A stretch of DNA of 64,000 bases, taken from Escherichia coli. GTDB lineage: Bacteria; Pseudomonadota; Gammaproteobacteria; Enterobacterales; Enterobacteriaceae. The notes beneath the pieces are model-generated. The model saw only the letters and a list, made by a program, of their open reading frames with translations, searched no databases and was not told where the DNA came from. Below, piece after piece: positions 2,804 through 31,370 of the stretch. The DNA is taken from the NCBI RefSeq assembly GCF_030013595.1, contig NZ_CP122768.1. One strand, given 5' to 3'. A program made the position numbers and the translations under genes. Each line of letters starts with the position of its first letter. Position 1 is the first letter of the stretch.

Positions 2804-4243
2804 TTAAGACTGTAAATAAACCACCTGGGTCTGCAGATATTCATGCAGGCCATGTTTACCATCTGCGCCGCCAATACCGGATTTACGCCATCCGGCGTGG
2901 AAGCCTTGCATAGCTTCGAAGTTTTCACGGTTGATGTAAGTTTCACCAAACTTCAGCCCTTTAATGGCTTTCATCGCGACGTTCAGATTTTGGGTATAGA
3001 TTGATGAGGTCAGGCCGTAATCACTGTCATTCGCCATTGCGATAGCATCTTCCAGCGTGTCAAATGCGACCACCGGCAGAACCGGGCCAAAGGTTTCCTC
3101 ATGCATAATCGACATTTCCTGGCGAACATCCAGCAGCAATGTCGGCGGATAATAATATCCTTTCCCCTCTACCGCTTTGCCACCCAACGCCACTCTCGCC
3201 CCTTCTTCTACTGCGCGCGCCACTTTTTGCTCGACCCTTTCCAGCGCCGCGGCGTTAATCAACGGCCCCATCGCAATGTCGTTGCGTTCTGCGGGGTTAC
3301 CAAATTGAACCGCCTGCAACGCTTCACCCAGCCGATTGACGAACTGATCATAAATGCCTTTCTGTACATAAACACGTTCTGCACAGTTACACACTTGCCC
3401 ACTATTAATGACGCGTGAATCAACGATGGCTTTGACTGCCAGTTCAAGATCGGCATCGTCCATTACGATAGCTGGTGCTTTACCCCCCAATTCCAGGCAC
3501 ACTTTGGTGATGTTTTTCGCCGCAGTCGCCATGATCTTTTCACCTGCAGAGACGCTGCCTGTCATACTGACCATTGCGACCTTTGGGTTACCCGCCAGTT
3601 CTTGCCCAACGGTTTCACCACGCCCCAGAACAAGGTTAAACACGCCGCGCGGAAGGCCTATTTCATCGACGATTTTGGCGAATGCAATCGCATTGTTTGG
3701 CGTAAATTCACTGGGTTTAATGACAATGGTATTACCAGTCAAAAGAGCGGGAGCCATTTTGCGGGCAATGAGGAAGAACGGGAAGTTCCACGGCAGAATG
3801 CCGGTAGTCACACCAAGCGCACGTTTAAACAGAAGAATATTTTCTCCTGGACGATCGCTTTGAATAATCTCGCCCTCGTAACGCCGTGCCCACTCCGCCA
3901 TGTAATCGATATAGTCCGCAGTAAAAGCCACTTCGACTTCAGCCAGCTGCTGGATCTTGCCCCCTTCTTCAACAATCAGCGCACTGATTTCACTGGCGCG
4001 TTCGCGGATCCCGGCGGAGATTTTGCGCAACCAACTGGCGCGTTCAATGGCAGGCAACGCTTCCCATTCTGGTTGTGCACGTTCTGCTGCATCGATTGCC
4101 TTACGGGCATCCTCGGCCTGACCATCGGGAATGCGGGAAATGACAACCTCAGTAGCAGGGTTTACCACATCAATCCATGCGTCTCCACGCCAGGTAACAA
4201 ACTGTCCATCGATATACATAGGATGTTGAACGGGTACTGACAT
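2804..4243 (-). CDS. aldA: lactaldehyde dehydrogenase (aldehyde dehydrogenase A)
   Basis: 479-aa ORF starting MSVPVQHPMYIDGQFV; ALDH family motifs including ELGGKAP and catalytic Cys region. Confidence 0.95.
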   Translation of the reverse strand: MSVPVQHPMYIDGQFVTWRGDAWIDVVNPATEVVISRIPDGQAEDARKAIDAAERAQPEWEALPAIERASWLRKISAGIRERASEISALIVEEGGKIQQLAEVEVAFTADYIDYMAEWARRYEGEIIQSDRPGENILLFKRALGVTTGILPWNFPFFLIARKMAPALLTGNTIVIKPSEFTPNNAIAFAKIVDEIGLPRGVFNLVLGRGETVGQELAGNPKVAMVSMTGSVSAGEKIMATAAKNITKVCLELGGKAPAIVMDDADLELAVKAIVDSRVINSGQVCNCAERVYVQKGIYDQFVNRLGEALQAVQFGNPAERNDIAMGPLINAAALERVEQKVARAVEEGARVALGGKAVEGKGYYYPPTLLLDVRQEMSIMHEETFGPVLPVVAFDTLEDAIAMANDSDYGLTSSIYTQNLNVAMKAIKGLKFGETYINRENFEAMQGFHAGWRKSGIGGADGKHGLHEYLQTQVVYLQS

Positions 4244-14249: not shown

Positions 14250-14854
14250 TATCTTTCAGCGCTCATAAGAAGCACACTCCGACAACGATTAATCGCAGTC
14301 CAGAGAAGCAGAATTGAAGTAATGCTCCATAAAAGATTATTCCATTGCATCCATTGTGGATAAATGGCAATGGCCAGCCCCCACAAACCAAATATTAACG
14401 CGCGATCGCTTTTGCCAAATGGACCGACATAACTACGAATACCGTTAATCGTCTGCGCGAGTAAACCGCAAAACTCGGTCAATATGGTGCAAAATAACAT
14501 GAGTATCACGAGTGATGCATTACTTTCAGGTAAAAATAAAAACGGTAAATAGAGCGCAATATCGGAAATAACATCGCCAGTCTCATTCAAAATCGCCCCA
14601 AGACGTGTTTGCTGATTGCACTCACGCGCCAACATGCCATCCAGCGCATTGAGTGCCATACGAATAAAAAGCACGATGGGCAATAGCAGAAACATGCCAG
14701 GATATGGCACCAACGCCAACAACAAACCGGTGAGAAGAGAAAGTGCCAAAGCGGCAAGTGTGATCTGATTTGCAGACACTTGCAGCTTATGAAGCCAAAA
14801 CATCGTCGGCCTTAACAGCGACTGAAAGAGCGGTTTTATCTGGTAGAGCGTCAT
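14249..14854 (-). CDS. ynbA: CDP-alcohol phosphatidyltransferase-family membrane protein
   Basis: Membrane protein with D-G-x2-A-R...G...D-x3-D type motif (ALDGMLAR...GDVISD); start ATG overlaps the ynbB stop. Confidence 0.8.
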   Translation of the reverse strand: MTLYQIKPLFQSLLRPTMFWLHKLQVSANQITLAALALSLLTGLLLALVPYPGMFLLLPIVLFIRMALNALDGMLARECNQQTRLGAILNETGDVISDIALYLPFLFLPESNASLVILMLFCTILTEFCGLLAQTINGIRSYVGPFGKSDRALIFGLWGLAIAIYPQWMQWNNLLWSITSILLLWTAINRCRSVLLMSAER

Positions 14855-29748: not shown

Positions 29749-30264
<516 letters not shown>

Positions 30265-30271
30265 CACTAAC

Positions 30272-30296
30272 GCCCGCACATTGCTGCGGGCTTTTT
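30272..30296 (+). terminator. rho-independent terminator of uspF
   Basis: gcccgcacattgctgcgggc followed by TTTTT. Confidence 0.6.
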
Positions 30297-30439
30297 GATT
30301 CATTTCGCAAATGTGCTGACATTTTCCCCTCTAATCCGTACCATACACGCCACAGTTTTTATATCAGATTTCTTATGCTGGGCGTTCCGGCATGACGCAT
30401 ACTCTTCTGATGCCATATAACGAATTGAGTCGCTTTTAA

Positions 30440-30493
30440 ATGTCGCAAAATCAAGAAATTAGTAAGAAAGAACAATACAACCTGAACAAGTAA
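30440..30493 (+). pseudogene. ttcA: 5' fragment of ttcA (tRNA 2-thiocytidine synthase), cut by prophage integration
   Basis: Hand-translated MSQNQEISKKEQYNLNK then stop; matches the recalled TtcA N-terminus, after which the frame is lost; ttcA is the integration target of the K-12 Rac prophage. Confidence 0.7.
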
Positions 30494-30590
30494 GGGCAAA
30501 AATCACAACTATCTGACGCATAATAATTTTATTTATTTTTCAATACGTTAAGCAACATCAACAACTACAATAAGCTACGATAACCCACTC

Positions 30591-30645
30591 TTTTTTTGCC
30601 CCATTTTTGCCCCTTTTGCGGCTTTTTGCCCCATTTTTGCCACTA
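30591..30645. repeat. five tandem ~10-bp direct repeats, consensus TTTTTGCCCC(A)
   Basis: tttttgcccca/tttttgcccc/ttttgcggc/tttttgcccca/tttttgccac read directly; about 100 bp inside the prophage end. Confidence 0.5.
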
Positions 30646-30803
30646 AAAAAATCCTAAAACACCCAATCCGTGAACTGCAATTGGCACCCATGAATACTTT
30701 CCAATAGAATCTGTATCGGCTGGAAATCATTCAATACTCGCACTATCGAAAGTTATCCAGCCAGCCGCGGTACGTTCTTGCATACGACGTGCCGCGGCTT
30801 CTG

Positions 30804-31370
30804 TTATTCCACTACAAAATTCCTAACCGACCTCAAATCCTCCAGACTGCTCAGTTCCTCTTTCATCTCCCGCTGACGCCGATAAATCTCATCGTTGCGA
30901 TCGACCTGTGCCTGCACCATTGCAGTAAGCAGCTCATCCAGTTTCTGCATCGACAGTTTCACCTGTTGATTATCGGCATCACCCCACGCAAGGGTGGTTC
31001 GTGCCGTATCGGATTTCGCCGCCATTACTACCGGATAAAGACGGGCCATTGAGTCGGGGCCAGCATTCCAGGTACGACCGTTCCATTCGAACGTGAACGG
31101 CTGCGCTTCCTGTTCTGCACGCCAGGCGTTGATTTCCTGGCGTTTAGCGGCTTTTGCCGCTGCGATAAGTTCCGGCGTGACGGTGAACGGGGCGATTTCG
31201 CCCCATTTGCCGCTTTGTAACTCTTCCCAGATACGCTGACCTGTTGTTGCCGTGTCTTCTGGTGTGGCGGTGTACGGAACGGGGGCTTCCATACCCTCAA
31301 ACAGAACATCGCAGTCAATCGCACCGGATTCGGTATAACGGGGACTGGTAATCTCTTTTATCTGCATCAT
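30804..31370 (-). CDS. tail fibre assembly protein (Tfa chaperone)
   Basis: 188-aa ORF directly downstream of, and overlapping, a side-tail-fibre gene; typical Tfa size and placement. Confidence 0.7.
   Translation of the reverse strand: MMQIKEITSPRYTESGAIDCDVLFEGMEAPVPYTATPEDTATTGQRIWEELQSGKWGEIAPFTVTPELIAAAKAAKRQEINAWRAEQEAQPFTFEWNGRTWNAGPDSMARLYPVVMAAKSDTARTTLAWGDADNQQVKLSMQKLDELLTAMVQAQVDRNDEIYRRQREMKEELSSLEDLRSVRNFVVE

Follow-up and report, generated by a model that had tools for sequence, protein, structure and literature searches.

The window analysed here is a stretch of 64,000 nucleotides of Escherichia coli DNA, in which the genes pfo/nifJ, ompN and uspF are followed, left of a prophage junction, by an ATG at position 30440. 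Direct reading from this ATG gives MSQNQEISKKEQYNLNK and a TAA stop at 30491–30493. The resulting plus-strand remnant ttcA' (30440–30493) consists of the ancestral first 17 codons of ttcA plus the TAA and adjoins uspF as in strain K-12. Positions 30400–30489 were 100% identical to the 5' end of the uninterrupted ttcA in many E. coli genomes, with the match ending at 30489 (query positions 1–90). The 26-mer AAGAAAGAACAATACAACCTGAACAA (30464–30489, unstranded), which occurs as a single exact match within the 64-kb window, was found again at the int-proximal prophage end (the intR-ttcA end) of strains UMNF18, ETEC1732 and K-12, and an identical 26-bp block is labeled 'attB' in the record of Rac-SA53. 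Since the match to ttcA ends at 30489 and the 26-mer is present at both prophage ends, the junction at about 30,490, which the initial annotation had placed behind a ttcA frame of 17 codons and a stop, is correct, and the crossover took place somewhere within 30464–30489. Alignment with K-12 ttcA and with the Rac attR put the attR core, i.e., the identity block holding the crossover region, at the same positions.

The site is thus the attR of a Rac-family prophage integrated in codons 9–17 of ttcA, and the remnant, which Rac-type integration left behind at attR, corresponds to the pseudogene ttcC of K-12. The position of ttcC and the core shared with Rac-SA53 bear out the earlier assignment to the Rac site in ttcA, as do the location of the core in the 5' coding region of ttcA, the ttcA' remnant next to uspF, and the presence of intR-xisR with a phage-supplied ttcA 5' end at the far junction, the latter being read in close relatives. 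The junction itself is already known and belongs to the textbook biology of E. coli. Upstream of the remnant, a terminator hairpin of uspF with its T run (30272–30291) is followed by a weak promoter-like sequence CTGACA-17-TACCAT (30316–30344), which could be the ancestral ttcA promoter. If it is such a promoter and still active, transcription would enter the prophage arm and pass over the repeats described below, antisense to the tail-fibre genes.

The far prophage end is located outside the window, and the arm next to int (P') was read in three relatives, UMNF18, ETEC1732 and K-12, and not in the window's own genome. The 411 bp of the region under study were identical to UMNF18. A BLAST search with the whole window gave only ~97% identity to UMNF18 elsewhere, and the closest complete genome by BLAST was that of the porcine strain ETEC1732 (99.7% over 10 kb). 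In the relatives read, the prophage is ~48 kb long with full structural genes. The far end in UMNF18, ETEC1732 and K-12 consists of xisR-intR, ~50 bp, and then an intact ttcA, whose first codons are phage-derived (MQENQKNTKK... in UMNF18 and ETEC1732). This is the known Rac arrangement, with integration in the 5' end of ttcA and replacement of a few N-terminal residues (PMC4632033, PMC6379469). The phage supplies a replacement 5' end, and ttcA is therefore split rather than lost. The intact ttcA elsewhere, which might have spoken against the junction, exists at the other end only through this phage-supplied start and does not contradict the reading.

The first prophage gene inside the junction is, according to the ORF list and the RefSeq annotation of the identical UMNF18 segment, a DUF4376 tail-fibre-assembly-like gene (30804–31370, minus strand), which represents cargo and not a part of the att site. 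It is followed by tail-fibre genes, and no invertase is present at this end. The initial annotation had stated that K-12 carries stfR-tfaR-pinR-ynaE at this end of Rac and that a different tail-fibre set abuts the junction here. The former was confirmed, the K-12 order being ynaM-ydfK(ynaE)-pinR-tfaR-stfR, and the latter agrees with both the ORF list and the UMNF18 annotation. The 3' end of the DUF4376 gene, together with an imperfect inverted repeat past its stop (AGCCGCGGTACG...CGTGCCGCGGCT, ~30750–30800), forms a segment (window 30704–30810) that recurs at 86–95% identity in phiP27, in many Stx phages and elsewhere in E. coli genomes. Far from the junction, near the late-gene end of the prophage, an AB5 toxin pair is encoded on the minus strand (window 60195–61413), with an ArtA-like, pertussis-like ADP-ribosyltransferase subunit at 60688–61413 (NCBIfam NF011803, E=1e-76, under the curated cut-off) and a subtilase-family AB5 binding subunit at 60195–60677 (NF038397, E=2e-45).

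Between the core and this cargo lies the repeat array, which Tandem Repeats Finder (TRF) detected at 30593–30641 with a period of 11, 4.8 copies, 80% matches and a score of 59; it starts 104 bp and ends 154 bp beyond the core. On the plus strand, it is composed of a core-proximal pair, TTTTTGCCCC A TTTTTGCCCC, at 30593–30613 (units 30593–30602 and 30604–30613, 11 bp from start to start), a degenerate middle unit TTTTGCGGC at 30614–30622, and a distal pair, TTTTTGCCCC A TTTTTGCCAC, at 30623–30643 (units 30623–30632 and 30634–30643, the last being TTTTTGCCAC). The middle unit and the fifth unit (GCCAC) are both imperfect. Allowing up to one mismatch, TTTTTGCCCC had 16 matches in the window vs 7.7 ± 2.9 in shuffled sequences, with four of them within 50 bp. 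Moreover, the score observed in an unbiased search for tandem pairs of 7-mers was reached by none of 200 shuffles. The core AAGAAAGAACAATACAACCTGAACAA lacks any GCCCC, and the word of the array is thus distinct from the core-type sequence. A further inverted copy of the word with one mismatch to TTTTTGCCCC (TTTTTGCCCT on the minus strand, 30493–30502) adjoins the core. Of the eight E. coli sequences aligned, seven share it without change and 2013C-4991 has a modified form (GTCAGAGTAAAAACC); PHB10 lacks it. The copy possibly belongs to the region of the core-type sites.

An RNA or hairpin element was rejected, since the Rfam scan gave no match at the array and its single-strand folding was no better than that of shuffled sequences (z = 0.49). 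Elsewhere, the scan produced only sub-threshold matches, to STnc310 at 30259–30311 and to CssrB at 30766–30821 (minus strand), the latter being weak with 28 bits vs a gathering score of 76. Scans for promoters and terminators likewise gave no prediction within the array. The array also falls within a minus-strand ORF of 51 codons (30575–30730, ..AKMGQKAAKGAKMGQKK..), which is annotated as a hypothetical protein in E308 and a few other genomes, and its repeats might accordingly be coding sequence. However, the ORF is unannotated in K-12, the sequence past the array, which would encode its N-terminal part, is not conserved between elements, and strains differ by single 11-bp units (see below). 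Because such changes shift the frame, the ORF is ruled out as an explanation, its probability being practically negligible.

The array is kept at the same distance from the core in the K-12 Rac attR, in Rac-SA53, in the record 'Salmonella phage SPF_0923' and in several other E. coli, i.e., the repeats are present at the related prophage ends. The initial annotation had placed them at the phage end. The array does lie at the junction, but K-12 Rac has the same one, and it is therefore unrelated to the differing tail-fibre cargo. Among these elements, three cargo sets were found beyond the array, namely, tail-fibre genes, ynaM-ydfK-pinR and sitABCD, and the similarity between elements with different cargo ceases within ~10 bp past 30643. 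Since it ends just past the last unit, the array is the outermost conserved feature of the phage arm. Such a stop right after the array is what would be expected for the outermost functional att element and supports an attachment function. In some E. coli and in the record 'Salmonella phage SPF_0923' (which includes pfo-ompN-uspF), sitABCD directly follows the same ttcA' remnant. All these sitABCD-bearing elements keep the whole Rac P arm, including the array, and look like Rac remnants or cargo swaps ending at the outer edge of the arm. In locus numbering, the stretches concerned are 3416–3740 at one locus and 461–690 at each of two others.

The core-proximal part of the array (aligned to window 30591–30613) varies by exact 11-bp units, with three copies in E308, one in 23CRST038 and two here. 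This copy-number polymorphism, corresponding to four to six units in the whole Rac array, may tune the stability of the prophage. The gain of exactly one unit in E308 and the loss of one in 23CRST038 are also what a functionless, minisatellite-like product of replication slippage, merely carried at the prophage end, would display. Against this stands the conservation across diverged elements: between Rac and PHB10, the core was 92%, the 100-bp spacer between core and array 47%, the array 79% and the sequence beyond it 38% identical. Furthermore, the GCCCC words keep their spacing (Rac, 11/19/11; PHB10, 11/19/12; phi367, 11/20/11), and dozens of independent contigs carry the word at a constant distance from an int gene, which makes an origin by slippage highly improbable indeed. 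The middle unit is variable: other E. coli have TTTTGCAGC or TTTTGCGGC plus the following bases, PHB10 has TTTCGCAT, and phi367 has an unrelated CAACCACAC. As it is degenerate in Rac and unrelated in phi367 with the spacing kept, the array is best described as two pairs. The five tandem repeats of ~10 bp reported initially therefore stand as a real array according to TRF and the shuffles, but are better read as two pairs plus a degenerate middle unit, either a spacer between the pairs or a weak site.

Two further elements were recognized on the plus strand between the core and the array. The first is an IHF-like site TTTCAATACGTTA at 30538–30550 with a T-rich tract in front of it. It was recognized solely by its likeness to the consensus, from which it departs at one position, and it is the sole plus-strand match to WATCAANNNNTTR with up to one mismatch within 30480–30660. 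PHB10 matches the IHF consensus perfectly at the aligned position (AATCAATTAGTTA), and a similar TTTCAATATGTTA is present in phi367. The second is a direct repeat CTACAATAAG / CTACGATAAC at 30565–30584 (TRF period 10, 1.9 copies) on the core side of the array, a candidate site for an accessory protein. Similar words, GCTAC/ACTACAAT, precede the array of PHB10, and in phi367 and SaltyDalty this place is taken by other tandem 10-mers.

The repeat matching the array at the other prophage end, whose presence had been proposed as a check, was found in UMNF18, ETEC1732 and K-12 as a tandem pair of the same word beside intR. This pair, AGTTTGCCCCC-AATTTGCCCCA, follows the intR stop and precedes the phage-supplied ATG of ttcA, in the orientation of the array; it is identical in the three strains and ends ~47 bp from the core. 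Two more copies of TTTTTGCCCC lie inside intR in the opposite orientation: an exact one at 14751–14760 (locus numbering), which encodes TGAKM, residues 70–74, and a one-mismatch copy at 14694–14703. These intR-internal copies probably occur by chance, since the TGAKM peptide is not conserved in the PHB10 integrase. The gene product IntR carries an Arm-DNA-bind_2 domain (Pfam PF12167, formerly DUF3596; residues 5–69, E=3e-26) ahead of the catalytic Phage_integrase domain (PF00589). Integrases with DUF3596 have been put in the IntBPP-1 subgroup of arm-binding-domain recombinases, the named members of which are called putative (Smyshlyaev et al., PMC8138268).

The neighboring xisR encodes a DUF1233 excisionase, a second candidate to read the repeats. 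Excisionases typically bind direct repeats that follow one another at roughly one helical turn and lie on the int-distal arm, as in phage lambda and mycobacteriophage L5, whose Xis proteins polymerise head to tail on such helically phased repeats, and excisionase sites are normally confined to one attP arm. The array would have the geometry and the int-distal position of a binding platform for XisR as a directionality factor, polymerising in the same manner in the attR arm, and it is included in the 294-bp attR probe which XisR binds (PMC4632033). In the published experiment, performed under a single condition, XisR shifted the 294-bp AttR probe, but not the 291-bp AttM probe (Liu et al., 2015, PMC4632033). 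Mapping of the published primers on K-12 (locus numbering) placed AttR at 2967–3260 and AttM at 3091–3381, with the array at ~3194–3244 in both. The unshifted AttM holds the entire array, and binding needed the core or the bacterial side present only in AttR. As the array is in both probes and only AttR was shifted, it is not sufficient for XisR binding under those conditions. The unshifted probe also contains the segment with the direct repeat 30565–30584. In addition, the int-proximal arm carries a tandem pair of this word, and word and geometry also adjoin the integrases of streptococcal phages (see below), all of which makes a platform for XisR an unlikely function of the array.

The word and its layout were followed in the attP regions of other phages according to the identity of their integrases to IntR. 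In the reconstructed Rac attP, the word TTTGCCCC forms a pair at +7 and +18 from the int stop, followed by the core (+75 to +101) and by units at +205, +216, (+225), +235 and +246. PHB10, with an integrase 69% identical to IntR, has TGCCCCT at +8 and +19 and at +205, +216, +235 and +247 from the int stop, and its intact attP shows both arm sets in one molecule. In phi367 and the Stx1 phage of the wrbA/yehV type (44%), TGCCCCA is located at −61 and −50 and at +150, +161, +181 and +192, while SaltyDalty (43%) has TGCCCCA at −40 and −29 and at +167 and +178. In these Stx phages of the wrbA/yehV type and in SaltyDalty, the integrase ORF includes the int-proximal pair, which codes for the C-terminal tail of the protein (..APDVPQ.. 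/ ..APSLPQ..). In the locus numbering, the phi367/Stx-type pair spans 2440–2461 and the SaltyDalty-type pair 2434–2453, i.e., the arm sites overlap the end of int. The record of the Stx1 phage has the attachment site annotated between the two sets, and the distal set is marked as a repeat region. With more distant integrases the word changes, being GTTCCCA in phiCTX (32%) and TGGTACA in TC7 (30%), each as pairs on both sides, and the tandem-pair search of the phiES15 attP region (29%) was negative. Overall, TGCCCC pairs accompany integrases that are 43–100% identical, and phages with integrases 69–30% identical share a common attP layout, consisting of a pair at the 3' end of int and one or two pairs 170–210 bp further. 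In six of the eight attP regions searched for tandem pairs, none of 200 shuffles reached the observed score.

These homologous arrays also bear on the role of the T tracts. Runs of T5 start at 30593, 30604, 30623 and 30634, with a T4 at 30614, and tracts of T4–T7 recur every 9–11 bp in the array, judged by tract positions. In-phase A/T tracts bend DNA, and the array might be mainly structural, an intrinsically bent segment which folds the att arm by its T5 tracts phased at 10–11 bp, with GCCCC not read by any protein. However, the homologous arrays keep TGCCCC and lose the T tracts, as in TTTGCCCCAAATATGCCCCAAA of phi367, TTTGCCCCATCCATGCCCCA of SaltyDalty and TTATGCCCCAAAAATGCCCC of phage SMP, while bending alone would leave unexplained both the matching word on the other arm and its covariation with the integrase. 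Since TGCCCC is kept and the T tracts are not, a protein reading the sequence is the better explanation, and a purely structural role appears very unlikely. Bending is compatible with such a protein, and part of the conservation of the array could be structural, as the phased T5 tracts alone are expected to bend DNA.

A scan of IMG/VR for TTTGCCCCN5TGCCCC yielded at least 120 loci. Among the 120 matches listed, 61 have the pair within −70 to +60 bp of the point where an IntR-family int gene ends (3' end), in every case on the strand of that gene; at two loci it was ~220 bp downstream of int and at 15 more within 300 bp of the locus end. A search of viral contigs with IntR returned 80 loci that were 98–100% identical and mostly cut at the int stop, adding neither diversity nor arm sequence. 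The record vB_EcoS-683R6, considered as a phage with an internal int, was rejected because it represents a prophage with ttcA and dbpA flanks.

These observations support the idea that the array is, with good probability, the cluster of P-arm sites to which the arm-binding domain of the tyrosine integrase IntR binds, as predicted from the word and its layout. Its four good units are likely to be the individual arm-type sites, read by the N-terminal domain of IntR. Integrase arm-type sites were among the functions suggested initially for the repeats, and this has become the favored reading: the word is found on both arms, IntR has a predicted arm-binding domain, the layout is kept, and the word covaries with the integrase. 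Four of the features by which arm-type sites are recognized were found here, namely, words on both sides of the core and outside the crossover region, a cognate integrase with an N-terminal arm domain, a word unlike the core, and a word and layout which track the relatedness of the integrases.

According to this model, IntR would act as a heterobivalent protein, with its C-terminal domains at the 26-bp core and its N-terminal arm-binding domain recognizing TTTGCCCC. The attP would then comprise, over ~255 bp in total, the intR stop, the tandem pair of the P' arm, ~47 bp with the replacement ttcA start, the core, ~100 bp with the IHF-like bend site, and the two tandem pairs of the P arm. Bending of the DNA, for which the sequence at 30538–30550 is the putative site between the core and the arm sites, would let the Int protomers bridge arm sites to the core and build an intasome, in which the P' pair and the IHF-type bend would join the P-arm units as in lambda and P2. 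Once integrated, the prophage would keep the P arm at attR, as in this window, and the P' pair at attL beside intR; during excision, both arms would be reunited with the participation of XisR. The binding of IntR to the words, the usage of the sites in integration vs excision and the role of IHF are inferred.

In the literature searched, no IntR binding or mutational data, no description of IntR arm sites and no such word for the DUF3596 subgroup were found, and a literature search for the literal motif strings gave nothing relevant except for a paper on phage phiEf11 (see below). As no description of IntR arm sites or of the word was found in the searchable literature, the array is apparently new for IntR, i.e., a further case of a well-known type of site, apparently undescribed for this integrase. 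If IntR binds the array, the functional Rac attP would be a fragment of ~255 bp from the intR stop to ~30645, useful for Rac-based integration vectors, and this would help to explain why some Rac remnants remain excisable. The IntBPP-1 (DUF3596) subgroup, including the wrbA and yehV Stx-phage integrases, would gain a predicted arm-site word and geometry. The array would then also be the true outer limit of the prophage at attR, which would explain why very different cargo (tail fibres, the pinR region, sitABCD) starts at the same base.

In at least eight low-GC viral contigs of IMG/VR, the same pair directly adjoins the stop of a streptococcal-phage-type integrase. In the Streptococcus phages SMP and LF4 (circular genomes) and in the record 'Campylobacter phage CJLB-5', a TGCCCC pair is located at about +5 to +25 of the int stop and a second one at about +220 to +240. 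In locus numbering, the pairs span 1943–2200, 1943–2200 and 1952–2210, respectively, the second being ~205–220 bp downstream of the first. Tandem TGCCCC pairs at 11-bp spacing might thus represent an attP 'arm code' shared well beyond Rac, by enterobacterial Rac/Stx and streptococcal SMP/LF4 phages and possibly by phiEf11, a proposal made tentatively from the pattern, with somewhat less than even chances of being right. In such a code, a first pair may directly adjoin the integrase stop, with one or two more pairs ~200 bp further on. Comparison of the N-terminal ~75 residues of the IntR family with those of the streptococcal-type integrases by hhalign gave a probability of 2.5% with shallow alignments, which leave a common ancestry of the two arm-binding domains unsupported, and Pfam calls no arm domain in the streptococcal-type integrase. 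If the arm code is true, it would reflect either convergence or an AP2-like mode of recognition conserved since very early times, and a simple motif rule would then suffice to locate attP sites and to set the borders of prophages.

Among known systems, the Enterococcus phage phiEf11 has direct repeats AAAGGGGCAAA / AAAGGGGCA in both attP arms, which were proposed as potential integrase-binding sites (PMC12540744). These repeats are the reverse complement of TTTGCCCCTTT; phiEf11 differs in being a phage of Firmicutes with ffs as its integration site and a distantly related integrase, and its sites are likewise a prediction only. With the P2-type phages, Rac shares the logic of a pair on each arm, and phiCTX, which is counted as having a P2-type integrase (32% identical to IntR), has pairs on both sides. 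Their words (tgTGGaCa, tgccGCCActt) are different, the P arm of Rac holds an additional pair, and P2-type phages use Cox/Apl while Rac uses the DUF1233 excisionase.

In the attP of phage lambda, the arm-type sites P1, P2 and P'1–P'3 are bound by the N-terminal domain of lambda Int. The Rac attP resembles it in having short non-core words on both arms within a site of ~240–255 bp, a shorter arm beside int, a longer arm with an IHF-like site between the words and the core, and an integrase with a separate arm-binding domain. It differs from lambda by the word TTTGCCCC, by P-arm sites arranged as contiguous tandem pairs rather than separated by IHF, and by an arm domain of another Pfam family (PF12167), the Rac sites being predicted from sequence. 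The four to five contiguous predicted sites of the Rac P arm are also more than those of the lambda P arm. Another close counterpart is K-12 Rac, whose attR has the same chromosomal site, 26-bp core and ttcA' remnant, and a P arm, including the array, which is 92% identical over 30400–30660. The K-12 prophage also has, like the relatives of the window, the intR-xisR module and a phage-supplied ttcA 5' end at the other junction. The difference lies beyond the arm, where K-12 carries ynaM-ydfK-pinR-tfaR-stfR, whereas here the tail-fibre genes abut the arm.
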